Shown here piece after piece: positions 16,153-30,590 of a DNA stretch of 64,000 nt. Positions within the stretch are counted from its first letter, which is position 1. The number at the start of each line of letters is the position of its first letter. This DNA comes from a virus. Lineage: Duplodnaviria > Caudoviricetes. The stretch is from the IMG/VR virus record IMGVR_UViG_3300027804_000063, positions 1 through 64,000 of that record. One strand, 5' to 3'. A model generated the notes under the pieces. That model had not been told where the DNA came from. It ran no database searches and was given only the letters and a program-made list of their open reading frames with translations. A program made the translations under genes and the position numbers.

Positions 16153-16173
16153 AGAATAGGTGAGGGGTGTAAC
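16153..16173 (-). promoter_or_regulatory. ACACC-box promoter P1
   Basis: GTTACACCC-N6-TATTCT. Confidence 0.75.
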
Positions 16174-16178
16174 ACGGT

Positions 16179-16535
16179 TTAGATGTCTTCGTCTTCTTGA
16201 TCTTCGTCGTCTTCGTAGTCTTCCCAATCCGCGCCTTGTGGGATGAGATTTGTGAAACCGTCGTTCGGGTTTTCTTCGTTGGTTTCAACCGCGTGAACGA
16301 AACGCAAACTGCACGACTCGTTATACCACTTGACGATCATGTCATACATTTCTTGCGGTGTTCCCGTGAAGTTGCGATCATCACAACTCACGCCGTTGTA
16401 GTTATCACGAAACCATTGCGCCTGACCTTCGTCCATTGCGACATAGATTTTGTGACAACCATCAAACGCGATCAGTTTCGCGGTTTCGGTTGCCTGTCTG
16501 ACATCCTCAAACAGTTCGGTGAGTGTTGCATTCAT
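16179..16535 (-). CDS. hypothetical protein
   Basis: AAGGAG RBS; FDGCHKIY; acidic tail. Confidence 0.7.
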   Translation of the reverse strand: MNATLTELFEDVRQATETAKLIAFDGCHKIYVAMDEGQAQWFRDNYNGVSCDDRNFTGTPQEMYDMIVKWYNESCSLRFVHAVETNEENPNDGFTNLIPQGADWEDYEDDEDQEDEDI

Positions 16536-16586
16536 TTTCTGCTCCTTTGTTTAGTAGGTTTATTCGGGTGTTTGCCCTTCCCCCAT

Positions 16587-16607
16587 ATTGTAGGGGAAGG
16601 GTGTAAC
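16587..16607 (-). promoter_or_regulatory. ACACC-box promoter P2
   Basis: GTTACACCC-N6-TACAAT. Confidence 0.75.
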
Positions 16608-16615
16608 ACGGTTAT

Positions 16616-17251
16616 TTAGACGGACACTTCCTCGTCTTCCAACATTGCTTTGCATTGCGCTTCAATGCCGTCAAGGACATTCGTGACACGCTCATATTGT
16701 GCGTCATAATCGTCTGCCTCAATCTCTGCGTCGCTCATTGACGGATATTCGCCCTCAATGTCTGCCACGACCACACCGTTGCGGATCGCCACACCACCTA
16801 AGAACGCCATACCGCCCTCCTCGTAAGAGAGAACAAAGTCAAGTGTTGGGAACTGTTTGGACACATTGCGTATGCCCTCACAAATCGGAGACCATGCGGT
16901 CATGAAAGTCATGTTCAGTTCGGTATCTGCGATCTGTCCGAACACACCGTCAAAGTCTGCCCACTTAGAACCGTAGTTCTTGCAGTTCCACTCATACCAA
17001 TCGGGTGCGCCGAACTTTTCCATGTTCTTCTTGTTCATTGCTTCCATCTTGAGTTGCTTTTCTGAACCCTCACCATAGAAACCTTTTGGTGTTGCTGTCA
17101 GTTCCTCAGGTGTCGGGAACAAGTTGTCAAGAATACTGAACTGATTGTATTCCTTGCGTTCGTCCTCGTTCTTGATGATCGCTTCGTGGAAACGCTTGAT
17201 CTCAGTCGCCTCCCCTGAAACGGTCAGGTTGTTAGTGCAATAGTTTGGCAT
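16616..17251 (-). CDS. DUF1281/YubB ferredoxin-like-fold protein
   Basis: MPNYCTN...WYEWNCKNYGSKW...FMTAWSP...YEE.G. Confidence 0.8.
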   Translation of the reverse strand: MPNYCTNNLTVSGEATEIKRFHEAIIKNEDERKEYNQFSILDNLFPTPEELTATPKGFYGEGSEKQLKMEAMNKKNMEKFGAPDWYEWNCKNYGSKWADFDGVFGQIADTELNMTFMTAWSPICEGIRNVSKQFPTLDFVLSYEEGGMAFLGGVAIRNGVVVADIEGEYPSMSDAEIEADDYDAQYERVTNVLDGIEAQCKAMLEDEEVSV

Positions 17252-17292
17252 TACTTCTCCTTGTTTAGTTAGGTTTATTTGCTTGCCCCAAC

Positions 17293-17313
17293 ATTATGCA
17301 TGATGGGTGTAAC
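17293..17313 (-). promoter_or_regulatory. ACACC-box promoter P3
   Basis: GTTACACCC-N6-CATAAT. Confidence 0.65.
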
Positions 17314-17351
17314 ACAGTTATTTTTTAGTAGGTATTTTTTATTACTCTCAC

Positions 17352-17380
17352 ATTATATATCCGACAAAAACAAAAAGCAA
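17352..17380 (-). promoter_or_regulatory. sigma-A-type promoter
   Basis: TTGCTT-N17-TATAAT. Confidence 0.7.
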
Positions 17381-17478
17381 CTATTCCCCAAAACTATTTA
17401 GACCTAAATACGGAGCGATATTTAGAGCGAAATCTAGAGCGATCACTCAGCCCGACCAAATGCGATCCGTATTCAGGT

Positions 17479-17503
17479 TTATATGCGCCACCGTTCAGGT
17501 TAG
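17479..17503 (-). repeat. CGCCACCGTT box copy 6
   Basis: ttatatg-CGCCACCGTT-caggttag. Confidence 0.9.
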
Positions 17504-17574
17504 ATGCGAACAACCAACCATTGCTAACTAACAATCGTTGCAAACTAGTCCCGCATCAACAAAGCCCACCCCAC

Positions 17575-17605
17575 AGCCCCGCCCCCCGCCGCAAGGCGCG
17601 GGACT
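17575..17605. repeat. AGYCCCG dyad 1
   Basis: AGCCCCGC-N15-GCGGGACT. Confidence 0.8.
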
Positions 17606-17610
17606 AATGC

Positions 17611-17639
17611 TTGCGAACGGCTGTTCGCCCTACTACTAT
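17611..17639 (+). promoter_or_regulatory. sigma-A-type leaderless promoter of the HA-HTH gene
   Basis: TTGCGA-N17-TACTAT-N7-ATG. Confidence 0.65.
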
Positions 17640-17646
17640 CGGGGCT

Positions 17647-18033
17647 ATGACAATCTCACGAACAGACAGATGGCAATACCGTTTCAATGCGCTCGTGCAA
17701 TACACCAACAGAACAGGAACATCACTCGTTCCCGCGACACAGGTTGAAGTGTACGAAGGGAAGAATGTCGCGCTCGGCGCATGGGTCGCGTACAACCGTC
17801 AGCAGTATCGCGCAGGAGAACTACCGCTTGAGCGAAAGCAAGCGTTGGAGCAACTCGCAGGTTGGCATTGGGAGAAGCAGAAACCTGGCAGACGCTACGA
17901 CATGACGCGAGACGCAGAGATCGCGAAGCGTTATCAGAGTGGTGAGCGCGTAGGAATGATCGCAGACAGTTTCAATCTGTCACGCCAACGGGTTCATCAA
18001 ATCTTGAAAAAGGTTTCATCACCAAATGTCTGA
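17647..18033 (+). CDS. helicase-associated (HA) domain plus C-terminal HTH protein
   Basis: W...F.AL..Y....G...VP...LG.WV...R...L..ERK..LE.L..W, then IADSFNLSRQRVHQI; apparently leaderless ATG. Confidence 0.75.
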   Translation: MTISRTDRWQYRFNALVQYTNRTGTSLVPATQVEVYEGKNVALGAWVAYNRQQYRAGELPLERKQALEQLAGWHWEKQKPGRRYDMTRDAEIAKRYQSGERVGMIADSFNLSRQRVHQILKKVSSPNV

Positions 18034-18370
18034 TTACGGTCATCAACACGACAAGCGCGATCATAACGCTTGGAAAAAGATGAGCGAATGGTCTCACAGC
18101 GTTCCTGATTACGAACTTGACGCATTGTGGGATGAAGACATTTGGAGCACAAATCTGCCACCTGTTGAGACGGGCGCACAGAAGTTTGGGAAGTTTCTTG
18201 TTGCGACACTCGGTCTCTTTATTGGTATCGCGCTCGTATCGGTTGTTTTCTATCAACTTGTTTTAGCGTTGGGTTTCACTGACATCACTTTCCGTGAAGC
18301 GGTGATCGCAACTGTGTGTGTCGCGTTTATTCGTTACGCCGACGCAGGAGTGATGAAACAACTCCGATAA
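18026..18370 (+). CDS. membrane protein
   Basis: two C-terminal TM helices. Confidence 0.6.
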   Translation: MSDYGHQHDKRDHNAWKKMSEWSHSVPDYELDALWDEDIWSTNLPPVETGAQKFGKFLVATLGLFIGIALVSVVFYQLVLALGFTDITFREAVIATVCVAFIRYADAGVMKQLR

Positions 18371-18499
18371 ACACATCAGGACGCACCCTTGCGAGTGCGC
18401 CCTGAGCGGAGAAGCGAAAGGTGAAAGGAGAAGTCCTTTCGTTCCTCTAGCGATACAGAATAACACATGAGTTATATGTCGTTCTGAAGCGATTAGGTT

Positions 18500-19993
18500 T
18501 TACCCCAATCGCTTTCCATTTAGTTTGAGATATGTTTCCTGCCAACATCTCGGATACCAACGGTTCGGTTTCTTGCCGACTGACAGTTGCTTCAACACCG
18601 CGAGACCGTCAGTGACATTGTGTGCCATAAACACTTTGTGCTTCAAGACTTCTTTTATGCAGTCCATTGCCAAGATGTCGTGGTATCCACCGTATTGACC
18701 ACCTGTGCCAAGACCGTGAACCTTGCCGTCAGTCACCCACACGATCGGTGTGGACGAACGCTTGCGTTGCTTCACTGCCCAACGGATTGCTTCTCCGTCT
18801 ACGCCGTTACCGCCGTTACGCTCGGGAAGTTTGTCAATCATTTTCCCGTTTTGTGCGAGAACGAGAAGGTTCGGTTTGACATTGTTTCGGTCTGCTGAAT
18901 AAACCGCAACCGTGCAACCTGGACTTGCTTCCGTGATGTCAAGGATGTCTTTGTTAGTGAAAGACATTGAACCTGAACCGTCAATCAGAACGATACCGCC
19001 GTTGCCTTTCTTGTATCGGTCAAACACACGCTTTTCGGGATCTGCGAGTGCGTTACCAATCCTGCGAGGGTTGCGACCCATGTTGCTCGCGACACGCTTG
19101 CGACCGAGACCGCCGTGCGCCTTGCGAGTGAGTGGGAGTGTTCCGACAATGAGTTTGCCCCAACTTGGAACAACACCATTGTTGCCCTTGCCGACTTCCG
19201 TAGGTCGTACCTTCTTTGGGTCTGCCTTTGGTTGTGCGTTGGTTGCGCCAACACCGCCCTTCCCGTCTTTCGTTGGGTCGTCCTTCTTTGGTTCGCCTTC
19301 GCCTTCCTTCTGACCGTTAGGTTCGTCCTGTTGCTCGTCCTCATCCTGTTGTGGTGGGTTCGCAAGACGATCTACCCACTCCGCAATACGCTCGGTGTGA
19401 GAGAAACCGAAAGGTGCAAGACCGTGACGAGGGTCTACTTCGGTTGAACCGAGTGTTCCCGTCTTGAACGCCTTGACAAACTCTTTCTCAACCGCCTTGA
19501 TGATCTCGCGCAATGTTTTCGCCCACGCAGGGTTCACACGCTTGACACCCGTGAGAAAATCTTTGCCACCACCACAGATTGAGTAACCGACCGCGATATA
19601 AACCGCCTGTGTCCAATCACCTGCTTCTGCGATACGAACGCCTGACGCTTTCTCACTTCCGTCCGCGAGGAGATCAACATCAAATCCTGCTTTCTTGATA
19701 AGAAAGTTCACGCGCACTTCCTCAACGACAGTCATTGCTTCCTCTGTCGCAATGCCACGCGCAATCCATTTCGGAAAATCATCCGCAGGTGAAAATCGTG
19801 CGTGTGCCATTTCGTGCGCACGGATAACTCGGTCAATCTGCTCGTCACCAACAGGAACAACCATGTGCTTCGTGACGACATTCGTCATTGGTTTGCCACG
19901 CACAGGTGCGCAAGTGTCTACGCGCCATACACCTGCGTCCTTATCTTTACGACCCAACATTTCGGGAAGTGGTCTGATTTCTACTTTCTGCAT
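18500..19993 (-). CDS. HExxH peptidase-like plus VWA domain protein (CobT-like partner)
   Basis: AHEMAH; LIDGSGSM MIDAS; VTDG. Confidence 0.8.
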   Translation of the reverse strand: MQKVEIRPLPEMLGRKDKDAGVWRVDTCAPVRGKPMTNVVTKHMVVPVGDEQIDRVIRAHEMAHARFSPADDFPKWIARGIATEEAMTVVEEVRVNFLIKKAGFDVDLLADGSEKASGVRIAEAGDWTQAVYIAVGYSICGGGKDFLTGVKRVNPAWAKTLREIIKAVEKEFVKAFKTGTLGSTEVDPRHGLAPFGFSHTERIAEWVDRLANPPQQDEDEQQDEPNGQKEGEGEPKKDDPTKDGKGGVGATNAQPKADPKKVRPTEVGKGNNGVVPSWGKLIVGTLPLTRKAHGGLGRKRVASNMGRNPRRIGNALADPEKRVFDRYKKGNGGIVLIDGSGSMSFTNKDILDITEASPGCTVAVYSADRNNVKPNLLVLAQNGKMIDKLPERNGGNGVDGEAIRWAVKQRKRSSTPIVWVTDGKVHGLGTGGQYGGYHDILAMDCIKEVLKHKVFMAHNVTDGLAVLKQLSVGKKPNRWYPRCWQETYLKLNGKRLG

Positions 19994-20054
19994 TTTTCCT
20001 TCTTTCGTTTCTAGGTTTATGTCTCTTGCTTAGGGAGACTTACTTACACCCCCC

Positions 20055-20075
20055 ACTTTAGGTGAGGGGTGTAGT
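20055..20075 (-). promoter_or_regulatory. ACACC-box promoter P4
   Basis: ACTACACCC-N6-TAAAGT. Confidence 0.7.
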
Positions 20076-20083
20076 GGGGTTTA

Positions 20084-20827
20084 TTAGACCGCGACCTTGT
20101 TGATCGCGATTGCGTCCAAGACGCTTTCTGCCTGTCGCCCGAACACCATTCGTGCGCTGTCCTTGTCACCAAGTGTCTTTCGCAGTTGGTCAAATGCGTA
20201 GAAGGTGCGGAGTGAAATCCTGCGCTCTCCTGCGTCTGCCATACGAACCGCATACTCACGCAAGTCTGCCGACAACTTCTTGAGTGCGTCAGGGTGAGGT
20301 TGGTTGATACGGATTGCGACAGGGAAACGGTCTTTCAACGCTTCAGGGAGTTCCTCCATTGTCTCAATGTTTGTAGTCATAACGACACTGAAACCGTCTT
20401 TCGGAGTGATCGTGCGTCCGTTTTCAGGACTTTCCCACTTCGCGCTTTCAGGACTATCGGTGAACGCGAGAAGTGTTGCGAACACATCCGCACCTGCCTT
20501 GTCAATCTCGTCAATGACGAGACGACCACCACGCAAACCGTCACCCTTCCATGCGGACACTGCCTTACCGTCCACCCAAGACCAACCGCCTTCGCCGTTC
20601 ATCTTGTAGTGACCCTCAACTTGCGCATTGGACATATCCTCTGTGCAAATGAGACGGAACGCTCCTGCGGTGACATCACCGTAGTTGAGACCTGCGAAGG
20701 TCTTGCCCGTTCCTGGGGGTCCGAACAGGATGAGACGATCTACTCCTGCCTTGAGTGCGTTCTCAACATCCTTCCAACACTGCGGAAGGTCGTTGCGCAC
20801 CTCTCTCTCTGCGACTTGCTGTTCCAT
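20084..20827 (-). CDS. MoxR/CbbQ-NorQ-type AAA+ ATPase
   Basis: GPPGTGKT, VIDEID, TTN, ALKDRF. Confidence 0.88.
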   Translation of the reverse strand: MEQQVAEREVRNDLPQCWKDVENALKAGVDRLILFGPPGTGKTFAGLNYGDVTAGAFRLICTEDMSNAQVEGHYKMNGEGGWSWVDGKAVSAWKGDGLRGGRLVIDEIDKAGADVFATLLAFTDSPESAKWESPENGRTITPKDGFSVVMTTNIETMEELPEALKDRFPVAIRINQPHPDALKKLSADLREYAVRMADAGERRISLRTFYAFDQLRKTLGDKDSARMVFGRQAESVLDAIAINKVAV

Positions 20828-20899
20828 TACTTTCCTTCTTTCTCCGAACCTTGTTCGGTCTAGTTGCTTATTTCTAGGTTTACTTGCCTTACACCCCCA

Positions 20900-20920
20900 A
20901 CATTACATTGGGGGTGTAAC
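20900..20920 (-). promoter_or_regulatory. ACACC-box promoter P5
   Basis: GTTACACCC-N6-TAATGT. Confidence 0.75.
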
Positions 20921-20929
20921 AGGGTTTGA

Positions 20930-21337
20930 TTACGCGACTTGCGCTTCTGCGTCTGCGTTGCTCTCGGACTTTGCGCCCTTGAGTTCCGTGACACGGATTT
21001 GCTCGTATGCGGTGATCGTGGTTACTGCGTCTGCGACATCTGCCTTGATGACACCGACTTCCACTGCTGACTTGAACTTCTTTCCGTCCACTGCGAACTT
21101 GGTGACAGTCTTGAACACCTTGTCCGAAACGAGACCCTTCAAGAGTTCCACGCTGTATGAAGGACGCTCGCCCCTCACAACCGCGACCTTTACTCCGTCC
21201 ACGACTGCGTAGTCCACGCCTTCCTTTGCGAGTTCCAACTTGAAACTTGCTTCCGCTTGTGCGAGTTCCTGCTCTGCGATCGCCAATGCTTCACGCTTTG
21301 CGAGAACTGACTTCGCTGTTGAGGTGATTAGTGCCAT
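20930..21337 (-). CDS. hypothetical protein
   Basis: AAGGAG RBS, promoter upstream. Confidence 0.7.
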   Translation of the reverse strand: MALITSTAKSVLAKREALAIAEQELAQAEASFKLELAKEGVDYAVVDGVKVAVVRGERPSYSVELLKGLVSDKVFKTVTKFAVDGKKFKSAVEVGVIKADVADAVTTITAYEQIRVTELKGAKSESNADAEAQVA

Positions 21338-21384
21338 TTGATTTTCTCCTTATGTTTAGTTGGTTTATTTGCTTCTTGTCCACC

Positions 21385-21405
21385 ACTCTATATGAGGGGT
21401 GTAAC
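21385..21405 (-). promoter_or_regulatory. ACACC-box promoter P6
   Basis: GTTACACCC-N6-TAGAGT. Confidence 0.75.
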
Positions 21406-21448
21406 ACGGTTATTTCTATTTCGTACTGACTAACTATCTATGATAGAT

Positions 21449-21477
21449 AGTCTAGTACCACTTTTGGGGGATTGCAA
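21449..21477 (-). promoter_or_regulatory. sigma-A-type promoter
   Basis: TTGCAA-N17-TAGACT. Confidence 0.6.
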
Positions 21478-21480
21478 CCT

Positions 21481-21756
21481 TTATTCCAAGATTTTTGAGA
21501 TTTCTTGATCCATATTGGTCACAAACTCCTGAACCACATTTTCCTCATATTCCGCAACGATTTGTCGCGCAATCGGGTTCAAGACCCGTGCGAGTTCCTG
21601 TGCTGTCCCTAACCGTTCTAACAGGGTTTCCTTGCGGTCGCTGTCGGTGTCAGGGTTCGTGGACTCTTTTGCGTCCTTGATTACCTGCCCACCTAATGCG
21701 GTTTGCAGAAGGAATACCTGATCTGCTGTTAGTCGGACTTCGTATCGCTTTGCCAT
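21481..21756 (-). CDS. hypothetical protein
   Basis: ATG 21756 after AAGGA. Confidence 0.6.
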   Translation of the reverse strand: MAKRYEVRLTADQVFLLQTALGGQVIKDAKESTNPDTDSDRKETLLERLGTAQELARVLNPIARQIVAEYEENVVQEFVTNMDQEISKILE

Positions 21757-21838
21757 TCTGTTTCCTTTCGGGTTGTTGTTGTTCATACCTTTATTACGCA
21801 ATGAGCCCCCAAAAGTGTGCGGTGTTTTTTAGAAAATC

Positions 21839-21871
21839 TTTTCCACAGGGTTATCCTCAACCTGTGGATAA
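21839..21871. promoter_or_regulatory. DnaA-box cluster (3 boxes)
   Basis: TTTTCCACA, TTATCCTCA, TGTGGATAA (perfect). Confidence 0.6.
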
Positions 21872-21882
21872 CTCGTTGAGGT

Positions 21883-21907
21883 TTATATACGCCACCGTCC
21901 ATGTTGG
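21883..21907 (-). repeat. box copy 7 (CGCCACCGTC variant)
   Basis: ttatata-CGCCACCGTC-catgttgg. Confidence 0.85.
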
Positions 21908-21981
21908 GAGATCACAGTCAGGATCGCTGATTCGTGCGCGCGCCCGCGCGTGAGCCCCGCATGGTTCTTCGCGAGAAGAAG

Positions 21982-22013
21982 AGCCCCGCACCCGCATCTT
22001 CAAACGCGGGACT
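21982..22013. repeat. AGYCCCG dyad 2
   Basis: AGCCCCGC-N16-GCGGGACT. Confidence 0.8.
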
Positions 22014-22017
22014 AGGC

Positions 22018-22057
22018 AAAAAGAAAGGGGAGGCTTTCGCCCCCCCTCTTATTTTTT
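22018..22057. terminator. intrinsic terminator (bidirectional)
   Basis: purine/pyrimidine stem with TTTC loop flanked by A and T tracts. Confidence 0.7.
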
Positions 22058-22059
22058 GA

Positions 22060-22197
22060 TTACTCCCAAGTAATCATTCCGTTTTCTGAGATGTAGGTTG
22101 GGAGTCCCATACTTTTGAGTTCCTCGTATGTGTAGGGATCTTTTTGGTTTTTGTTGATGTGATCAACATATCCCTTGTTTCTTTCTGCTTCTGTCAT
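22060..22197 (-). CDS. micro-protein (45 aa)
   Basis: MTEAERNKGY...ITWE; AAGGAG RBS, own promoter and terminator; not in ORF track. Confidence 0.65.
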   Translation of the reverse strand: MTEAERNKGYVDHINKNQKDPYTYEELKSMGLPTYISENGMITWE

Positions 22198-22236
22198 TTC
22201 TTCTCCTTGTTTTAGTTGTTCTTCCTTACATATATA

Positions 22237-22257
22237 ACATTACTGTAAGGGTGTTGC
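22237..22257 (-). promoter_or_regulatory. ACACC-box promoter P7
   Basis: GCAACACCC-N6-TAATGT. Confidence 0.75.
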
Positions 22258-22366
22258 ACAGTATTGACGCACGGAGAACCTCAAAATGTGTATGTCACAC
22301 TTTATCTAACTAAGTGCGTTATATGTATGTAGGCAACAACGCCTACCAAAGCGTTAGGAGACGCAG

Positions 22367-22510
22367 TTGGAAATCAACTACGAAGCAATAAAAGAAATGC
22401 GAAAAGCGTTGAAGCAAGAAATTGCAAGAAACGGGATCAACGAAAACAACAGGCAGTGGGTTCACGAACTGCGAGTTGCGATTGAACTTCGCGAAAGCGG
22501 TGTTTACTAA
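22367..22510 (+). CDS. micro-protein (47 aa)
   Basis: AGGAG RBS, TTG start, followed by a terminator; not in ORF track. Confidence 0.55.
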   Translation: MEINYEAIKEMRKALKQEIARNGINENNRQWVHELRVAIELRESGVY

Positions 22511-22517
22511 AACCACA

Positions 22518-22557
22518 AAGAAAACCCCAACTCAGAAATGGGTTGGGGTTCTTTTTT
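22518..22557 (+). terminator. intrinsic terminator
   Basis: AAGAAAACCCCAAC/GTTGGGGTTCTT stem then T-run. Confidence 0.75.
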
Positions 22558-22591
22558 GCGTTAGCCCCGCGTCTGATGCACGCATTCGCGT

Positions 22592-22622
22592 AGTCCCGAC
22601 ATCCGATGCGCGTAACGGGACT
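22592..22622. repeat. AGYCCCG dyad 3
   Basis: AGTCCCGA-N15-ACGGGACT. Confidence 0.7.
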
Positions 22623-22632
22623 GAGACAAAAT

Positions 22633-22671
22633 AAAACCCGCAGAAGATGGCTGAGTTCTTCTGCGGGTTTT
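22633..22671. terminator. intrinsic terminator (bidirectional)
   Basis: AAAACCCGCAGAAGA/TCTTCTGCGGGTTTT. Confidence 0.8.
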
Positions 22672-22674
22672 GAT

Positions 22675-22884
22675 TTAGTTGGTTGTTTCGCGGACTACCT
22701 GAAACCGATCGCCTTCTTCGGTGATCATTCCGAGAGTGCTTCCGTTGTCCCATTTGATGTGAACCGTGCCAAGTCCGTCAATATGGGTGACGACACCTTC
22801 GTCTCCCCACTTCAACTTCGTGTACGGGTCGCCTGACCGCATAAACATTACGCGCTTACCGACATAACTTTCTTTGTCTGACAT
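22675..22884 (-). CDS. DUF4314-like small protein
   Basis: D.Y..L..G..G.V..ID.LG.VH..WDNGS.LG. Confidence 0.75.
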   Translation of the reverse strand: MSDKESYVGKRVMFMRSGDPYTKLKWGDEGVVTHIDGLGTVHIKWDNGSTLGMITEEGDRFQVVRETTN

Positions 22885-23108
22885 TAGTAGACCCCGAACG
22901 ATATTCCGTCTGATGTCAGTCCGAACAACGCACCTGCGTCGTTTCCTTCTGTGTCCATTGACGGGTAAAGAATAGTTCCGCTAGAGAGAACGAGAACCAT
23001 TGGTATCTCATTCTTGCGCCAACCTTCTTTGTCCATTTCTGCTTGTGTCATTGGTCGGATATCAACAACTGTTGATCCGACAATGGTGTCGTCTATTGTG
23101 TCGCTCAT
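22884..23108 (-). CDS. hypothetical phage protein
   Basis: AAGGAG RBS; DTEGNDAGALF. Confidence 0.7.
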   Translation of the reverse strand: MSDTIDDTIVGSTVVDIRPMTQAEMDKEGWRKNEIPMVLVLSSGTILYPSMDTEGNDAGALFGLTSDGISFGVY

Positions 23109-23151
23109 TTACTTTCTCCTTTTGTTTAGGTTTATGTGAAGCGTCTCGCTG

Positions 23152-23736: not shown

Positions 23737-24218
23737 TAGAACCTTCTCCTGTTTCTCCGCCACTCGTGGCAGTCGTGCTTTGCTTGCTCATCTACTTCTG
23801 CTTGCGTCATCTTTGCCGTGATCAACGGACGGTATCCGCACGAGTTACACGCGATACCGAGATATTCGGTGACACCTTGTGCCAACTGATATCCGTGAAC
23901 CGCCGTGTTGCCGTGTGTTCGTTCGTTGAGATAAACCGTGATGAACACTTCACAGTTCGCGCAACCGATGATCTTGACATCTTTGCCGTTTGTCGGTGCT
24001 TGCTTCGTAAAGAAGTCAAACTTGAAGTGCTTACAGGTTTCGCATTTGTCGTCAAGTTTGCGTGACTTGACGATTTCTGTTTTGCCCTCTGTGATTACTG
24101 AATACTCTTGTGGGAGTATTCCTTTCAAGGTCGCTTGATGAATGAGGTGATTTCGCACCAACCATTCCGTGTAAGGCTTTGCAACCTTTGCGACTTTGGT
24201 CTTTCCTTTCTTTGCCAT
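23736..24218 (-). CDS. multi-CxxC Zn-binding protein
   Basis: three CxxC pairs plus HDC; AAGGAG RBS. Confidence 0.7.
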   Translation of the reverse strand: MAKKGKTKVAKVAKPYTEWLVRNHLIHQATLKGILPQEYSVITEGKTEIVKSRKLDDKCETCKHFKFDFFTKQAPTNGKDVKIIGCANCEVFITVYLNERTHGNTAVHGYQLAQGVTEYLGIACNSCGYRPLITAKMTQAEVDEQAKHDCHEWRRNRRRF

Positions 24219-24261
24219 TTCTAGTTTCTCCTTGTTTAGGTTTATCTAACTCGCTACTTAC

Positions 24262-24282
24262 ACTATATACGCACGGTGTCAT
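24262..24282 (-). promoter_or_regulatory. ACACC-box promoter P9
   Basis: ATGACACCG-N6-TATAGT. Confidence 0.7.
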
Positions 24283-24353
24283 ATAGTTTGTGTCATTTAT
24301 AGACCTAATAATAAATATACTTCTAATATATCAGGGGCATAATATACCCACAC

Positions 24354-24374
24354 TTATCCACAGGCTGTGAATAA
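24354..24374. promoter_or_regulatory. inverted DnaA-box pair
   Basis: TTATCCACA (perfect)-ggc-TGTGAATAA. Confidence 0.65.
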
Positions 24375-24420
24375 CTAGATCACCCAACTCCACTTAGCAC
24401 TAAATACAAAAACACAGCAG

Positions 24421-24445
24421 TTATATACGCCACCGTTCAAGTTGG
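24421..24445 (-). repeat. CGCCACCGTT box copy 8
   Basis: ttatata-CGCCACCGTT-caagttgg. Confidence 0.9.
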
Positions 24446-24494
24446 GGTTGATGTCACGACATCACGACAGCAGATCCGCGATCCGCCAGCCCAC

Positions 24495-24526
24495 AGCCCC
24501 GCGCCCATCTTCCGATGCGCGGGACT
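24495..24526. repeat. AGYCCCG dyad 4
   Basis: AGCCCCGC-N16-GCGGGACT. Confidence 0.8.
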
Positions 24527-24801
24527 CACAAGTCTCGGCTTGTTCTTCGGGACTGTAGGATGCGTTTATGCCCCATCCATTCCGTCCGCGTAAAGAATCC
24601 CATAACTTGCAGATCGTTGAGATCATTGACGCGATCGCTCAAACTGAGCCCGAACTATTTGGCGTTGGGACTGCAACACTTATGCCCGTCAAGCACTCCG
24701 CACGGCTCACACTTGCAGACGATCTGCACCCCTACTATCAGCCCCTAACGCAAAATAGCCCGCCTACCGAACGGCAGACGGGCTAATTGTTTGAGTGCTA
24801 G

Positions 24802-25053
24802 TTACTTCGGTTGCGCCTCACTCCATAGGTGTCTAAATACGAACTTCGGAATCGGATGCCCGTCGTTCGTAAAGTAGTAACCATTCTCAAGTGTTGAATG
24901 ATCGGGAATAGTTACGATCTGACGCTTGCTAACACGCCCACCATACCAATACCCAACGATAAAGATATTGTGATCGCTTGTCGTCTCCCATTGCCAACGC
25001 GACTTACCGACATACCCCTTATAGGTAAGTTGAGTGCTCACGACTGCACCCAC
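24802..25053 (-). CDS. hypothetical protein
   Basis: co-oriented ORF; start uncertain (GTG 25041 possible). Confidence 0.5.
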   Translation of the reverse strand: MGAVVSTQLTYKGYVGKSRWQWETTSDHNIFIVGYWYGGRVSKRQIVTIPDHSTLENGYYFTNDGHPIPKFVFRHLWSEAQPK

Positions 25054-25289
25054 CCGTTAGGTGTGCGCATTGCGTATAGATACGGTATGACGCTCAGAAT
25101 GAGATCGGTAAGTGCCTGCGACACTTCATCCCGACTAGTTGCCATACCGTGAATGAAGTCGTCGTCAATGCGCCCATGAATGAGATCATCCACGATCGCG
25201 CCAATAACTCCGATACCTATCGCACCTATGCCGAGATAATTCTCCGCAAGGACTTCGCTAATAGATACCGTCTCCGTAATGTCTGACAT
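25038..25289 (-). CDS. hypothetical protein
   Basis: GAAGGG RBS-like sequence upstream. Confidence 0.55.
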   Translation of the reverse strand: MSDITETVSISEVLAENYLGIGAIGIGVIGAIVDDLIHGRIDDDFIHGMATSRDEVSQALTDLILSVIPYLYAMRTPNGWVQS

Positions 25290-25393
25290 AAATTGCCCTT
25301 CGTGTAGTAGTTGCTTAGTAATCGGCTTACGCCTTGTGCCTAGTTGGAATTGAATCCCACGCCGAACGCGCTAGGCGACTCACCTAGTGAGTG

Positions 25394-25831
25394 TTACGCA
25401 CCGTGTGCGCCGTCTCCACCCATTGAGATAAGTGTCGCACGCTCCCACACTTCACGCACTTGCTCACTCGCACCCGAGAGACCATTGTTGAGATAGTCAA
25501 TGACACGACTCTCAAACTCGCCCAACGCCTTCGCGCTATAACGCGCGATCGGTTGAGTTGCAACCGTGCCACACGGATAGTTCACCGTGTCAAAAATTGT
25601 GAACTTCACGACTTCGTAACCGTTGCCACGATCGTAGTGTGCATAACGGATATGCGCACTGAATTGCTTGCGATCTGAATCATGCGAGATACTCAACTTG
25701 ACTAGTCCGCCAACTTGCTCACCGTCAAACTGAATTGACTGCGAAGGACTGCGCCAAGTGTAAGAGACTTCACGATCGCCCACCTTGCGAGTGGCTTGTG
25801 CGAAGTTCGCACCTTGAGTAATAACCGACAT
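25394..25831 (-). CDS. hypothetical protein
   Basis: AAGGGAG RBS and promoter upstream. Confidence 0.7.
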   Translation of the reverse strand: MSVITQGANFAQATRKVGDREVSYTWRSPSQSIQFDGEQVGGLVKLSISHDSDRKQFSAHIRYAHYDRGNGYEVVKFTIFDTVNYPCGTVATQPIARYSAKALGEFESRVIDYLNNGLSGASEQVREVWERATLISMGGDGAHGA

Positions 25832-25880
25832 TATTTGCTCCCTTGTCTAGTAAATATAAGCGGAATTGCTTATACAAATA

Positions 25881-25901
25881 ACTATACGCAAGGGGTGTTG
25901 C
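25881..25901 (-). promoter_or_regulatory. ACACC-box promoter P10
   Basis: GCAACACCC-N6-TATAGT. Confidence 0.75.
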
Positions 25902-25988
25902 ATAGTGTGACTGCACACGATCAGGTAAATAAGTGAGATATCGCTCATCCGCCATAGCCCGAGATCGGTATCTACGATCGTAGATATT

Positions 25989-26013
25989 TTGTATCCGCCA
26001 CCGTTCAGGTTGG
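25989..26013 (-). repeat. CGCCACCGTT box copy 9
   Basis: ttgtatc-CGCCACCGTT-caggttgg. Confidence 0.9.
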
Positions 26014-26058
26014 GGACTTCAGATCCGCCCCTCCCCGCGACGCGCGTCCGCGCCCGCG

Positions 26059-26090
26059 AGCCCCGCGCGCTGAATTGTTGGCGCGGGACT
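26059..26090. repeat. AGYCCCG dyad 5
   Basis: AGCCCCGC-N16-GCGGGACT. Confidence 0.8.
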
Positions 26091-26139
26091 GATGCGGTTT
26101 ATGCCATCTTCAGACAGTTGATCTTCAGATCAGATCAAA

Positions 26140-26170
26140 AGCCCCGCGCGCGTCTTCGTGTGACGGGGCT
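26140..26170. repeat. AGYCCCG dyad 6
   Basis: AGCCCCGC-N15-ACGGGGCT. Confidence 0.75.
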
Positions 26171-26171
26171 G

Positions 26172-26495
26172 TCAAGTCCAAATGATCTTCGCAACTCCCC
26201 AGCGCTGCAGAGCCGCTTCGCATCTTTTACACGGCTTTGAGTTGGCGGGCAAACCATTGGCAAGAACTCGGGCAACATACACAGTCGCACCCGATATTTG
26301 AGACCCTGCCGATATCGCTCCTGCTATCTCTGCGTGGATATGCGACCTACGCCAAGCGTGGTGAACATCTCCGACACGCTTATTGGTGGCTTTGGCTACA
26401 ACACGCCCGTTACGCACCACAACGCACCCGTGGCGGTGTCTACACCTGCTCTGAAGGGCTGTAGCGACCGCTGTGCGGAGATGATGCTTGGACAT
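26172..26495 (-). CDS. Zn-dependent cytidine/dCMP deaminase-family protein
   Basis: HAE and PCKRC motifs. Confidence 0.85.
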   Translation of the reverse strand: MSKHHLRTAVATALQSRCRHRHGCVVVRNGRVVAKATNKRVGDVHHAWRRSHIHAEIAGAISAGSQISGATVYVARVLANGLPANSKPCKRCEAALQRWGVAKIIWT

Positions 26496-26531
26496 AGGTT
26501 GGCATAGTTTATATGCCGACCCTAGAAACGC

Positions 26532-26567
26532 AAAAAGCCCCCACCCCGACAGAAGGGTGAGGGCTTG
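26532..26567 (-). terminator. intrinsic terminator
   Basis: GC stem followed by TTTTT on the - strand after gene 26582. Confidence 0.7.
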
Positions 26568-26581
26568 CGCCTGTGTGTGGA

Positions 26582-26998
26582 TTACGCCGAGAGTGCTTCC
26601 ACCTTCGCGCGAACATTCGCGATATTGGTGAAATGCTTGTCACCTGCGGGGGTGGTGAAACCGACCTTGATGACACCGTAACCGTCCTCTTGGGGTGCGA
26701 CCCAAAAGACCACGCCGACCGTGCCCTTAGGAACTTTGCGCCCCTTGAACACCTCAACGGTTTGACCCTTGACGATTTCGCCGTTCGCGATCGCCTGTGC
26801 GAGACGCTCCTCGTTGAGACGGACGACTTCCGCCCAACGCGCGACCTGCTCCTCCGTGTGCCTGTGTGGTTGCTTCCAACGACCCACACCACCCTCGTAT
26901 ACCTGACCTGCGCGCTCCGCGAGATAACGCACACCGTTACGGTTAGTGTCCCAAAACACCTCCGCACCGCACCCGCGACAACTGATTACTTTGCTCAT
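26582..26998 (-). CDS. hypothetical protein (CxxC, C-terminal SH3-like)
   Basis: AAGGAGG RBS; own promoter and terminator. Confidence 0.7.
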   Translation of the reverse strand: MSKVISCRGCGAEVFWDTNRNGVRYLAERAGQVYEGGVGRWKQPHRHTEEQVARWAEVVRLNEERLAQAIANGEIVKGQTVEVFKGRKVPKGTVGVVFWVAPQEDGYGVIKVGFTTPAGDKHFTNIANVRAKVEALSA

Positions 26999-27031
26999 AT
27001 GCCCTCCTTAGGGGTCTAGTAGTTACTACAG

Positions 27032-27052
27032 ACATTACGCACAGGGTGTCAC
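27032..27052 (-). promoter_or_regulatory. ACACC-box promoter P11
   Basis: GTGACACCC-N6-TAATGT. Confidence 0.75.
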
Positions 27053-27079
27053 AGAGTGTGACTTGGATAAACCTAAACG

Positions 27080-27174
27080 GCGAAGCCGCTTTGTGACCGT
27101 GCGAAGCCGCTCGGCAGCGTCACCAAGCCGCTCGGCAGCGCTGGCTTTCCGCGTTCCGCAGCGCTGGCTTTCCC
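27080..27174 (+). repeat. overlapping short direct repeats
   Basis: GCGAAGCCGCT x2, AAGCCGCTCGGCAGCG x2, GCAGCGCTGGCTTTCC x2. Confidence 0.75.
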
Positions 27175-27181
27175 TCCTCAC

Positions 27182-27212
27182 AGCCCCGCAAACCGCGTAA
27201 CTACGCGGGACT
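27182..27212. repeat. AGYCCCG dyad 7
   Basis: AGCCCCGC-N15-GCGGGACT. Confidence 0.8.
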
Positions 27213-27289
27213 AGCAGGTTGGCGACAAACAGTAGCGTTTGGGGAGGACCTCCCGCAGGACCTGACGCGGAGGACCCGACGAAACGTTC

Positions 27290-27410
27290 AAAAAACGTCA
27301 GTTTTTGCACGTTTTTGCTGGTTTTAGAAAAACGCGTTTTTACAACTTTTTTTGCGGTTTTTGAAAGCCTTATTTTATAAGGGTTTTACGGAGGGTGTTT
27401 TTGGGAACTT
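27290..27410. other. phased A/T-tract array (intrinsically bent DNA)
   Basis: T-tracts at about 27302, 27312, 27322, 27337, 27347, 27358, 27374, 27384, 27397. Confidence 0.65.
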
Positions 27411-27499
27411 TCCCACCCAACTCAGAAAACCATCAAAAACGTCACTTTTTGATCAACCCGGCTGCCAGGTCCGTCTTCAGCCCGGGAAGATGCGGTTAC

Positions 27500-27530
27500 A
27501 GTCCCGAAGATCTGTCGCTGATGCGGGGCT
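27500..27530. repeat. AGYCCCG dyad 8
   Basis: AGTCCCGA-N15-GCGGGGCT. Confidence 0.75.
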
Positions 27531-27730
27531 CAGAAGAGAGTTGGTGCGTCATCAAACGCGTTACGCGACTCTGTGCAGATGCGGTGGGCGTAACCAAGTG
27601 GGGTTGAAGGGTTGCGAGGTGCGCCAATGTATCTTCCGTCTTTGTGTTCTATCCAAGACAGTATCTTGACGCAGTATTGGGTGTTGAGGGTGTCAAACTC
27701 TATGTTGCAGATGGAGCAGGCGACTTTCAT
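27530..27730 (-). CDS. small Zn-binding hypothetical protein
   Basis: CSIC...HRIC. Confidence 0.55.
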   Translation of the reverse strand: MKVACSICNIEFDTLNTQYCVKILSWIEHKDGRYIGAPRNPSTPLGYAHRICTESRNAFDDAPTLF

Positions 27731-27749
27731 GCCTGTCAGACTAGCGGAT

Positions 27750-27914
27750 TTAGTTTTGTGGTGCGCTGTCTACGGACAGTTCGTTGTGTGACCGTAGGTC
27801 TAACAGCAGATCAACCATCTCTGCGGAGGACACTAGTTCCCGACCCGAGATGGTTTTGATCGCGTTGTCAATGACCTGAACAACTGTGAGTTCTTTTACT
27901 GTATCTGTGACCAT
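27750..27914 (-). CDS. micro-protein (54 aa)
   Basis: MVTDTVKELTVVQVIDNAIK; not in ORF track. Confidence 0.5.
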   Translation of the reverse strand: MVTDTVKELTVVQVIDNAIKTISGRELVSSAEMVDLLLDLRSHNELSVDSAPQN

Positions 27915-28351
27915 TGTTCATCGTCCTCAATGATTTCTGATGCGCTGAGAACCATGCCGTCTAGTTCAAAATCAACACAGTTCAACCAACCATCAACTAT
28001 ACCGTCTCCGTATGCGTAGAGATCAAACCACGCATTATTGACCCACTCAATGCGCTCTGCTTCATCTGCTTCACGCAACTTTTGGTCGGTGTCAATACCT
28101 GCGCGCATGAGACGGTCGCAGTAACGGATAACTTCAGGGTCGTCACCACGCTCTCGTGCTTCTTTGCTTTCCCAAAGGTTGAGACGCATTTCGCCGTCGC
28201 AGAACACTCTGACTTCACGGTCGCCCATTGTGACGGTCGCGATGTGTTGATGTGCGTTTGCGTCCCAAACATAGAACGCAGGGTCTTGTCGGTGCTTCCG
28301 ATCTTCGTCTGTCACCTCATAGGTGATTTTGATGTCGGGTTTAGTTTCCAT
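27896..28351 (-). CDS. hypothetical protein
   Basis: AAGGAG RBS; WVNNAWFDL. Confidence 0.7.
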   Translation of the reverse strand: METKPDIKITYEVTDEDRKHRQDPAFYVWDANAHQHIATVTMGDREVRVFCDGEMRLNLWESKEARERGDDPEVIRYCDRLMRAGIDTDQKLREADEAERIEWVNNAWFDLYAYGDGIVDGWLNCVDFELDGMVLSASEIIEDDEQWSQIQ

Positions 28352-28380
28352 TTACTTCTCCTTGTCTAGTAGTTGATGCA

Positions 28381-28401
28381 AGAATACCCGAAGGGTGTCG
28401 C
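28381..28401 (-). promoter_or_regulatory. ACACC-box promoter P12
   Basis: GCGACACCC-N6-TATTCT. Confidence 0.75.
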
Positions 28402-28405
28402 AGGG

Positions 28406-28561
28406 TTATTCGTAAAAAGGTTCAGCGGGTTTCTGTCTCGGGGTCGGGTTGTTTCGTGCGAGTTTGCGTATCTGATACAACGCAAACAAAATAGGGACAC
28501 CGAAGAACGCCACCAAGATCATCTTGATACCCAAGACGACACCTAAGACACGCTTATTCAC
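28406..28561 (-). CDS. small single-TM protein
   Basis: GTG start; VLGVVLGIKMILVAFFGVPILFALY; not in ORF track. Confidence 0.5.
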   Translation of the reverse strand: MNKRVLGVVLGIKMILVAFFGVPILFALYQIRKLARNNPTPRQKPAEPFYE

Positions 28562-28766
28562 GGACACCAACCAAGTTCAACGCTTCGTCTAGTTGCATTG
28601 TGGTTTTGATGGAGTGATCGCCGTCGTATGCGACTGTCACAAAGTTCGCACCTTGTGACGGGTCTTTCGCTAACGCACAGATTTCTCCGTATGCCTGAAC
28701 GATCGCGTCTAAATGATCGTCTGCCTCATACACCATCTGCCAAGTGACCAAGTATGATTTGCTCAT
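28554..28766 (-). CDS. hypothetical protein
   Basis: ATGA overlap at 28763-28766. Confidence 0.6.
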   Translation of the reverse strand: MSKSYLVTWQMVYEADDHLDAIVQAYGEICALAKDPSQGANFVTVAYDGDHSIKTTMQLDEALNLVGVRE

Positions 28767-28975
28767 ACGCTGAGGTCTGCCTGCCACGCGAACATTGGGG
28801 AAACGCCAAGTTCATCTTTGATACAACGGAGGGTAACTTCTGTATCAACTTTGTACTGTTCCAACAACGCGAGGGTGTCTGCGAGTTTGAGTTTGTCGCT
28901 CTCTATCTGAGAACGAAGTTCATAAACTTGCTTTGACAAACTCTCAAATGTTTGCTTGTTTCTACGGAGTTTCAT
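28763..28975 (-). CDS. coiled-coil hypothetical protein
   Basis: heptad pattern; TAATG coupling. Confidence 0.6.
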   Translation of the reverse strand: MKLRRNKQTFESLSKQVYELRSQIESDKLKLADTLALLEQYKVDTEVTLRCIKDELGVSPMFAWQADLSV

Positions 28976-29361
28976 TACTTGTCTGCCTTTCGGTCTGCTT
29001 GTGGATCTCTTACTTCATACCGACGACCCTCACGCTTGATGAAGATGTCGGGTCTATCTGTAACAACCTTGCGTGCTGTCGCTTCGGATACTTCTCCGAT
29101 TTCTGCGAGTTGCTTGATAGTCACCAACTCAAAGACATTGTCTTTCGCCCACGACAAAATGTCGTTCTTGCCGTCTTGCGCCGTGCGCCAACCTTCGCTG
29201 TGCTCTGCGTTCGCCAACAGTTCCGCTTTGATGTGTGACGGAACAATGTCACGGACACGCTTCGCCACATGTGCAACCCAAACGGGTGTTCCGTATACAC
29301 GGATCGCTTCTGTGACTTCGCGTATCGCGCTGTCAAGTTCTGTGTCTAGTTCGTTACTCAT
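28975..29361 (-). CDS. hypothetical protein with C-terminal HTH-like segment
   Basis: ATG 29361 lies 7 nt after TATAGT (leaderless); TIKQLAEIGEVSEATARK. Confidence 0.65.
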   Translation of the reverse strand: MSNELDTELDSAIREVTEAIRVYGTPVWVAHVAKRVRDIVPSHIKAELLANAEHSEGWRTAQDGKNDILSWAKDNVFELVTIKQLAEIGEVSEATARKVVTDRPDIFIKREGRRYEVRDPQADRKADK

Positions 29362-29368
29362 AGTATCT

Positions 29369-29389
29369 ACTATACGCAACGGGTGTGAC
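29369..29389 (-). promoter_or_regulatory. ACACC-box promoter P13 (leaderless)
   Basis: GTCACACCC-N6-TATAGT-N7-ATG. Confidence 0.8.
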
Positions 29390-29405
29390 AAAGTGTGCGA
29401 TGCCA

Positions 29406-29669
29406 TTAGAACAAGTCCTTTTCGTCTTGAAGAAAGTCAGGAACAACTAGTCCCTTTTGCGCCTCTATACACGCACTCTCCGCTTCGTATATTGACTTCT
29501 TGACTTGCGCCAATGCGTTCTTGTATACCGCACTTTGGTTTGCTTCGTCGGTTCGTAAAAGTTCCGACACAACAAGATCGTATGCAGTATTCAGAGATCG
29601 CAATACCCGACTAAGACTGAGATAGTCCTCGTCAAAGATTTGTTTGATCGTGTTCTGTGTTTCAGTCAC
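29406..29669 (-). CDS. hypothetical protein
   Basis: GTG start below a sigma-A-type promoter. Confidence 0.6.
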   Translation of the reverse strand: MTETQNTIKQIFDEDYLSLSRVLRSLNTAYDLVVSELLRTDEANQSAVYKNALAQVKKSIYEAESACIEAQKGLVVPDFLQDEKDLF

Positions 29670-29716
29670 TATCTTTTTATACCCCTTTCAGAGTTCTAGG
29701 TTTATCTAACACTACC

Positions 29717-29745
29717 ATTATATATACCCCCACAACAAAAAGCAA
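29717..29745 (-). promoter_or_regulatory. sigma-A-type promoter
   Basis: TTGCTT-N17-TATAAT. Confidence 0.7.
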
Positions 29746-29786
29746 CCCCACCCCAAACATTTGTTTGCCCACCTCCCCAAAAACTT

Positions 29787-29811
29787 TTATATCCGCCACC
29801 GTTCGGTTTGC
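29787..29811 (-). repeat. CGCCACCGTT box copy 10
   Basis: ttatatc-CGCCACCGTT-cggtttgc. Confidence 0.9.
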
Positions 29812-29861
29812 AGAACACTTCTGAGATCCCTCCGCGCCCCCGCCCGTCGGCTCAGGCTCAC

Positions 29862-29892
29862 AGCCCCGCGTTTCTCTTCAGATGACGGGGCT
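29862..29892. repeat. AGYCCCG dyad 9
   Basis: AGCCCCGC-N15-ACGGGGCT. Confidence 0.75.
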
Positions 29893-29965
29893 CCCGGGTT
29901 TGATCCCGGCTTGCATTCTGGTTGGGAGTCAGATAAACTACAAGAACTAGAAAAAGGGGGTCGTT

Positions 29966-30565
29966 TTGGCTCAAATTGAGTTAGAAATATTAGAAGAAGT
30001 CAGCAAATATTGGGTTTCCTTCCGCAAAAAGGAAAATATTCAGCAGAACTCGTGCATCTTGGCGTGCAACTTCGTGCGTCAAATCTTGATCCGCATGGGT
30101 GTAGACCACGAGGTTGTCCCCATCGGGACTACGGTCTTCAACCGCAGAGGTTGGGAACTGTTCGGTCTTGCAAACAACCAACTGCCTGACGACGCATGGC
30201 AAGTCCATTGTTCAAGCGCATCTTTGGGCAGAGGTTTCGGTGGTCATGTTGTAATCCAAACGAAGAACTATTTTTTTGATCCGACAGCAGGCGCGTTCTC
30301 CCGACCTGAGCACGGCATGACCGTCCCCGAAACTTTGATAGTCCCGTTGGCGAAGATGGAAGTTCACAAACGGGACTCCAACACTCACCCTGTTCATGTT
30401 GTGTTTCGTACCAACAAGTTTTGGACTTTCCCGATCGGGTCGGGGTTGTATTCGTATTACTTTGAGAAGTGGAACACGATTTATCGTAAGTCACCCGATT
30501 GGCAGGTCTCACCGAAGCAGTTAGGGATACCTGACATAGTTGCGGAGATGCGTAAGGGTTCTTGA
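29966..30565 (+). CDS. transglutaminase/papain-like Cys-His-Asp fold protein
   Basis: SCILAC...GHVV...FDPT. Confidence 0.55.
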   Translation: MAQIELEILEEVSKYWVSFRKKENIQQNSCILACNFVRQILIRMGVDHEVVPIGTTVFNRRGWELFGLANNQLPDDAWQVHCSSASLGRGFGGHVVIQTKNYFFDPTAGAFSRPEHGMTVPETLIVPLAKMEVHKRDSNTHPVHVVFRTNKFWTFPIGSGLYSYYFEKWNTIYRKSPDWQVSPKQLGIPDIVAEMRKGS

Positions 30566-30590
30566 CTTTATAACACCCCACCCATATAAT
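30562..30590 (+). promoter_or_regulatory. ACACC-box promoter P14 with canonical -35
   Basis: TTGACT-N5-ACACCC-N6-TATAAT (17-nt spacer). Confidence 0.8.

Follow-up and report, generated by a model that had tools for sequence, protein, structure and literature searches.

Sigma adaptation by PafBC is known from the repair genes of mycobacteria, in which PafBC is present constantly. The LexA/RecA-independent damage promoter of these bacteria was described as tTGTCRgtg-8nt-TAnnnT (PMC5656591, citing Gamulin 2004). These PafBC-dependent promoters also go by the names RecA-NDp and recA P1. The PafBC motif obtained by chromatin immunoprecipitation sequencing was tGTCgg(N10)tA(N3)T, in which the 3' part is the sigma-A -10 hexamer, the 5' part lies at -23 to -28 and no -35 is present (PMC8635444). 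PafBC is a heterodimer of two proteins with HTH, WYL and WCX domains (HTH, helix-turn-helix) and is inserted between region 4 of sigma-A and the DNA; PafB reads the -26 element, the G and the C of the GTC triplet are contacted by two PafB arginines, and the mechanism was termed 'sigma adaptation' (PMC8635444). The heterodimer is activated by single-stranded DNA (ssDNA) (PMC8635444, PMC11804915). In this work, a class of 14 promoter copies was analyzed in an uncultured tailed phage from a lake (Duplodnaviria; Caudoviricetes), within a window of 64,000 nucleotides, which is the whole stretch studied and corresponds to positions 1 to 64,000 of the IMG/VR record IMGVR_UViG_3300027804_000063. Sequence comparison made it likely that through these promoters the phage co-opts the PafBC-type damage promoters of its host, in a lineage-specific variant with an ACACCC box.

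With up to one mismatch allowed, TGYNACACCS-N6-TANNNT was matched 13 times in the window, compared with 1.00 ± 1.01 times in 100 shuffles (largest count 4), and 12 of these matches were on the minus strand (16153-29390) and one on the plus strand (30569-30590). A 14th copy was found at 20055-20084 on the minus strand, where CAC replaces TGY. Together, the 14 copies, 13 leftward and one rightward, span 16153-30590 (14.4 kb). When a weight matrix derived from the 14 sites was applied to the complete contig (74,185 bp, both strands), only those 14 sites were returned, with scores from 25.8 to 35.7 and no site scoring between 10 and 25; the promoter copies are a discrete class restricted to 14.4 kb. 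The consensus in the phage was AAC-y-n-TGY-n-ACACCC-N6-TAnnnT, with AAC at -33 to -31, TGY at -28 to -26 and ACACCC at -24 to -19. The individual copies were as follows.

P1, 16153..16182, minus strand: AAC, TGTT-ACACCC, N6, TATTCT (-36 to -7); before gene 15767-16102; strong hairpin over the -10
P2, 16587..16616, minus strand: TGTT-ACACCC, N6, TACAAT; before gene 16179-16535; strong hairpin over the -10
P3, 17293..17322, minus strand: TGTT-ACACCC, N6, CATAAT; before gene 16616-17251 (DUF1281_C/Api92-like)
P4, 20055..20084, minus strand: CACT-ACACCC, N6, TAAAGT (CAC for TGY); before the 497-aa gene 18500-19993; hairpin
P5, 20900..20929, minus strand: TGTT-ACACCC, N6, TAATGT; before the AAA_5 ATPase gene 20084-20827
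Hairpin of P5, at 20900..20929: 10-13 bp, with compensatory changes in relatives
P6, 21385..21414, minus strand: TGTT-ACACCC, N6, TAGAGT; before gene 20930-21337
P7, 22237..22266, minus strand: TGCA-ACACCC, N6, TAATGT; before the small gene 22060-22197
P8, 23440..23469, minus strand: TGTC-ACACCG, N6, TAAGAT; before gene 23152-23406
P9, 24262..24291, minus strand: TATG-ACACCG, N6, TATAGT; before gene 23736-24218
P10, 25881..25910, minus strand: TGCA-ACACCC, N6, TATAGT; before gene 25394-25831
P11, 27032..27061, minus strand: TGTG-ACACCC, N6, TAATGT; before gene 26582-26998
P12, 28381..28410, minus strand: TGCG-ACACCC, N6, TATTCT; before gene 27896-28351
P13, 29369..29398, minus strand: TGTC-ACACCC, N6, TATAGT; ATG at 29361-29359; leaderless gene 28975-29361
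P14, 30561..30590, plus strand: TTGACT as -35 at 17 nt, TATA-ACACCC, N6, TATAAT; before gene 30629-30961
Operon behind P14, plus strand: leads to the SNF2 helicase and DUF932 genes

Each of the 14 promoters faced a downstream gene, and a ribosome-binding site lay 25-60 nt 3' of every promoter except P13, mostly inside a conserved leader. The hexamer TAnnnT was present in 13 of the 14 copies, the remaining one being CATAAT in P3. P14, with TTGACT, a 17-nt spacer and TATAAT, matched the consensus at 11 of 12 positions and was the only copy to stand out in a generic sigma-70 scan, which showed no enrichment otherwise (19 found, 19.7 expected). In P13, the -10 ended 7 nt 5' of an ATG without a Shine-Dalgarno sequence, and this arrangement was kept in two relatives. 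These sequence features supported the assignment of the 14 sites as sigma-A-type promoters in which the -35 is weak and the spacer before the -10 holds an additional, obligatory element.

The motif was not confined to this phage. An exact-pattern scan of IMG/VR detected it in 36 stretches from 28 contigs. Four related phages (101-145 kb) contained 11-27 copies each with at most one mismatch, compared with 0-2 in the reversed control, and in each genome the copies were gathered in one region, almost all on one strand. A logo was compiled from 64 sites of the five related phage genomes, and since the sites were picked by the matrix its fixed columns are partly circular: A(-32) was found in 59/64, C(-31) in 64/64, T(-28) in 62/64, G(-27) in 57/64 and T(-26) in 49/64, ACACC (-24 to -20) in all 64 and C(-19) in 58, while the -10 showed T(-12) in 61/64 and both A(-11) and T(-7) in 64/64. 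The variable positions were -25 (T in 33 and A in 12 of 64), -18 to -13 and -10 to -8. The distance of 6 nt between ACACCC and the -10 was rigid in 64/64 phage copies and in all host copies described below. TTGAC(A/T) occurred exactly 17 nt 5' of the -10 in 6/64 copies, by which the sigma-A register is fixed. The same box was also found before genes in several other viral contigs (L015, L019, L020, L026, L032, L034, L039), whose examined stretches had little or no protein similarity to the phage.

The original prediction, made from the letters of the window, had described a class of 14 promoters with an invariant 6-nt gap, CATAAT in P3, a -35 position retaining only AC, a register set by the TTGACT of P14, and an ATG 7 nt after the -10 of P13 without a ribosome-binding site. 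All of this agreed with the counts above, the retained AC corresponding to A(-32) and C(-31) over the five related genomes. A TGTNACA mini-palindrome had further been proposed as the functional unit; this was unsupported, as the whole asymmetric motif including AAC at -33 to -31 recurs in host-type genomes.

The box could be imagined as an operator of a phage or host repressor lying over ordinary sigma-A promoters, which would be silenced by it or held silent up to the arrival of a signal, in the manner of an SOS box. Its location between -35 and -10, at which a bound protein might obstruct RNA polymerase, and its presence on promoters with a consensus -35 (P14 and three copies of the relative G004) would suit such an operator. 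However, the rigid 6 nt in 64/64 copies and the systematic loss of the -35 fit a joint reading with the -10 and not a mere overlap, the promoter region yielded no candidate repressor, and the actinobacterial LexA box is unrelated to the phage box, so that we regard repression as decidedly improbable. Phage promoters with LexA boxes are alike in that phage expression is coupled to host DNA-damage signalling; they differ in acting by derepression and belonging mostly to temperate phages, whereas activation is proposed here for a phage in which no integrase or resolvase was found.

Compared with PafBC promoters, the phage copies shared the canonical sigma-A -10 hexamer TAnnnT with those of mycobacteria, the position of TGT at -28 to -26, 13 nt before the TA in all phage copies, and the lack of a -35 consensus. 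The likeness extended to the regulon: host copies of the motif preceded recA and other repair genes, and the hosts encode a PafB/PafC pair. Differently from mycobacteria, where the core is tGTC followed by gg or RGTG, the core in the phage was TGY-n-ACACCC, and AAC at -33 to -31 was added in the phage and in the host class; moreover, 14 copies stood in a row on a large, apparently virulent phage.

The host side was revealed by a scan with the strict motif over one genome per species (185,579 species), in which 17 loci were detected, 11 of them in metagenome-assembled genomes (MAGs) of Actinomycetota. The motif-bearing MAGs were labelled mostly as Ilumatobacteraceae, Acidimicrobium or Acidimicrobiales, and the G+C content of the MAG loci was 53-69%, so these loci are chromosomal and not phage-like. 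In five of these MAGs, TGYNACACCC-N6-TANNNT gave 33 matches (3-10 per genome) against 4 in the reversed control. RecA was encoded directly downstream of the motif in three different MAGs, and the other genes behind it in the five MAGs included those for a RadA-like protein, UvrD, Lhr, GyrB, ribosomal protein S6 and a Uma2 nuclease, together with many DUF222/HNH endonuclease genes. About a dozen genes behind the host motif were leaderless, their ATG lying 6-7 nt 3' of the hexamer, and P13 showed the same geometry between ATG and hexamer as the leaderless repair genes of the host. In the class to which MAG G006 belongs, the motif was present in 57/81 sampled genomes with 266 matches against 15 in the reversed control, and many of the sites read TGTC-ACACCC; in the order of a MAG labelled Nanopelagicales it was present in 6/41 genomes, with 16 matches against 8 in the control. 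Among 36 distinct host sites, the frequencies of A(-33), A(-32) and C(-31) were 0.78, 0.83 and 0.83, matching the AAC of the phage at positions that lay outside the pattern used for the genome-wide host search. Judged from gene position, the 26-bp motif of the phage is a putative damage-regulon motif of its likely hosts.

Exactly one adjacent pair of WYL genes was present in each host MAG. The two proteins in G006 had the compositions HTH_PafC+WYL+WCX and WYL+WCX, and one member of the pair matched the PafBC structures 6sj9, 7p5x and 9fnd (about 1e-18). Residues corresponding in the alignment to FERDK of the mycobacterial protein, a segment in the region of the recognition helix with its two arginines, were retained in the G006 homologue.

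Several points weigh against PafBC as the reader. The C of the GTC triplet, described as near-invariant in the recA promoters of Actinomycetes, was unconserved in the phage, with T, C, G or A at -25, and it varied in part of the host lineages as well. Neither the invariant ACACCC nor the upstream AAC has a counterpart in the mycobacterial motif; for ACACCC this means that the specificity of the reader differs or that another domain or protein reads that part, and these bases would have to be read by the wing of PafB, by PafC or by another protein. The G+C content of the phage was 47%, below the range of the motif-bearing MAG loci. With their good -35, P14 and five other copies, including the P14 orthologues and three copies of G004, may be able to fire in the absence of an activator. 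Finally, the negative result for sigma factors and activators of the phage came from Pfam domains, and a divergent one might have escaped this search.

Another host activator, ClgR-like or an unknown regulator of the damage regulon, might read TGYnACACCC in this host class and be co-opted by the phage in place of PafBC. Binding of ClgR to the RecA-NDp motif was once reported (work cited in PMC5656591), and the invariant ACACCC together with the unconserved C of GTC speaks for such a factor. We nevertheless consider it unlikely, because the spacing from TGT to the -10 is identical to that of the PafBC motif, the regulon of recA, radA, uvrD and lhr is typical PafBC content, and PafB/PafC is the sole WYL pair of each host MAG, with the segment aligned to the recognition helix kept.

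A factor of the phage itself was weighed against this host origin. Phages often encode their own activators of middle genes, and two WhiB genes were conserved in all five phage genomes, which would fit a phage activator, sigma factor or WhiB-dependent mechanism after the example of T4 MotA. However, the identical motif stood before core repair genes of the host in many phage-free genomes, no sigma or WYL domain was found in complete phage genomes, and several contigs whose examined stretches had no protein similarity to the phage shared the box; a phage factor was given a very low probability. The searches behind this covered WYL proteins and Sigma70_r2, none of which was detected in the five phage genomes, and DNA-binding domains, none of which was found by a Pfam scan among 20 window proteins, MotA and AsiA homologues not having been searched for specifically. 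The middle promoters of T4, with their MotA box and AsiA, resemble the present ones in using the host polymerase with its primary sigma factor and an adaptor-read box that stands in for the -35 and keeps a constant spacing to the -10. They differ in that the T4 adaptors are phage-encoded and remodel sigma region 4 ('sigma appropriation'), whereas no phage adaptor was found here and the box is the host regulon motif. The analogy to T4 MotA, made in the original prediction and also drawn in PMC8635444, is close in function, but in the present case the most likely source of the adaptor is the host. The dependence on an activator or repressor that had been predicted was retained as an activator-type architecture, while the phage HTH or WhiB proteins named as the factor were disfavoured by the host repair genes behind the motif and by the lack of WYL and sigma domains in the phage.

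As the phage encodes no such regulator, we infer host PafBC as the reader, and likewise ssDNA as the trigger and the timing of expression. Infection, through genome entry, replication and nuclease action, would yield ssDNA, which would activate the PafBC of the host, and active PafBC would then adapt the host sigma-A RNA polymerase to the 14 phage promoters. Leftward, a 14-kb block of mostly orphan small genes would be switched on, in the early or the middle phase of infection; rightward, the first operon of the replication module would follow the same signal. A wider statement has, in our judgement, an even chance of being correct, namely that a group of large virulent phages infecting Acidimicrobiia-type actinobacteria of fresh water, as well as several phage contigs whose examined stretches had no protein similarity to them, run a whole class of infection genes via a copied PafBC-type promoter and without a factor of their own, with the ssDNA alarm of the host as ignition switch and the box as a host-range marker. 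No paper on the use of PafBC promoters by phages was found in literature searches. In a 2025 paper cited in PMC12848934, pafBC was reportedly linked to mycobacteriophage resistance.

If this explanation is true, sigma adaptation also operates in a further class of actinobacteria, where its box is a distinct one with the extra AAC and the invariant ACACCC, and virulent phages have copied a host promoter many times (11-27 per genome) for a plastic, probably early block. The takeover would then proceed via a host activator and not via a phage-made sigma factor or a MotA-like protein, and an alarm meant for surviving damage or attack would be turned to the use of the phage. Silencing such promoters would be hard for the host without crippling its own damage response. 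A testable link would arise between infection-generated ssDNA and the timing of phage genes, and the promoter type could serve as a host predictor for uncultured phages, the AAC/TGY/ACACCC box marking host range.

Some promoter copies were accompanied by hairpins. A strong hairpin (-12 kcal/mol or stronger) enclosed the -10 in about 28% of the 64 sites compared with 14% of chimeric controls, and the excess was supported by a Mann-Whitney test (p = 0.004). In the window, hairpins were located at 16153-16182, 16587-16616, 20055-20084, 20900-20929 and 29340-29385, with the C-rich N6 as left arm and the G-rich start region as right arm, and orthologous sites in related phages showed compensatory double changes in them. 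Classic terminators were rejected as an interpretation, as the hairpins have no U-tract while canonical terminators with U-tracts occur nearby. The hairpins may serve in RNA 3' protection, in processing or in promoter occlusion.

Such stem-loops bring to mind the PeSL cassettes of T4-like phages, in which a near-consensus sigma-70 promoter is combined with a separate upstream terminator stem-loop (PMC2839356, PMC4122927). In both cases the small orphan genes of a plastic region are interspersed with many near-identical promoters, some of which carry stem-loops; here, differently, a host activator box takes the place of the -35, and the -10 lies within the hairpins, which have no U-tract. The likeness among the copies might then come from duplication and shuffling of cassettes through recombination between promoter repeats, with no factor involved, and in favour of this the copies lie in a plastic orphan-gene region and about 30% have a stem-loop as in PeSLs (PMC2839356, PMC4122927). 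Against it, conservation was position-specific and not block-wise, since N6, -25 and -10 to -8 vary while ACACC is kept in 64/64, and the same positions are kept in host chromosomes. An origin without any factor was already largely refuted by the host occurrences and is scarcely probable.

Other promoter types were also compared and rejected. The sigma-54 pattern (GG at -24 and GC at -12, TGGCAC-N5-TTGC) is resembled by a sub-group of copies with TGTCAC-ACCCG-TTGC, but GG was never present and TTGC was limited to a sub-group; sigma-54 is not known from actinobacteria. A promoter of a T7-like single-subunit polymerase was ruled out by the variable N6, the TAnnnT hexamer and TTGACA at 17 nt in some copies, on architecture only and with no search for RNA polymerase families. 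For a reading of AAC as an extracytoplasmic function (ECF)-type -35, the spacing to any CGT was too long. The GACAC box of WhiA was disfavoured by its position relative to the -35, as in the known complex the WhiA box lies upstream of the -35. As to a WhiB7-type AT-hook, both phage WhiB proteins had basic C-terminal tails without a clear AT-hook.

The source record of the phage is an IMG/VR viral contig with an estimated completeness of 52%. Its major capsid protein shared about 47% identity with its counterparts in Brevibacterium phage Cantare and Gordonia phage GMA6, and its genes for replication and nucleotide metabolism included an SNF2 helicase, DUF932, a primase/helicase, ribonucleotide reductase and methyltransferases. 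The leftward block of mostly orphan genes held the AAA_5 ATPase with its 497-aa partner, the Api92-like protein and a dCMP deaminase, and the genes behind the promoters mostly had no match in Pfam or PHROGs. No match to the region was returned by megablast against 50,697 phage records. The two WhiB-like genes at 10272-10586 and 50510-50863, both on the plus strand, indicate an actinobacterial host through their conservation in all five related genomes. Neither integrase nor resolvase was detected in three phage genomes that are 97-100% complete, and the phage therefore looks virulent.

In the MAGs of Acidimicrobiia type, the DUF222/HNH endonuclease genes were the commonest genes behind the motif (host loci L079, L083, L085, L087, L089, L090, L092, L098, L103, L104 and L105), and most of them were leaderless. 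These endonucleases are relatives of the mycobacterial 13E12 repeat family. A further genome of the G006 class, G012 (2.5 Mb), contained 21 copies of sites like TGTC-ACACCCC-TGTTT-TATAAT, which may represent either a repeated element or a regulon that has expanded.

Start codons in the phage region were closely preceded by a conserved leader, AACCTACTA-A/G-ACAAGGAG, whose spacing to the promoter varied; it was observed, among others, at 16100-16130, 16540-16560, 17255-17275, 24222-24245 and 30600-30628, and the corresponding leader of the relative G004 was ACTACTAGAAAGG. The leader was tied to the ribosome-binding site, part of it extending the Shine-Dalgarno pairing, and it resembles the start-associated sequences known in some mycobacteriophages. 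Another box in the same orientation, AACGGTGGCG-n-ATA-y-AA, occurred in about 10 copies between 12017 and 29803 in the minus-strand sense. In its form AACGGTGGCG-n-ATA it was not enriched in the candidate host genomes (18 matches compared with 20 in the control), and for this reason it is probably read by a phage factor. Two near-identical, consensus-like sigma-A promoters (TTGCTT, 17 nt, TATAAT) were found at about 29700-29745 and at 17350-17390 (minus strand), inside larger composite intergenic modules. Both were without ACACCC, and at least two promoter types are therefore present in the region.

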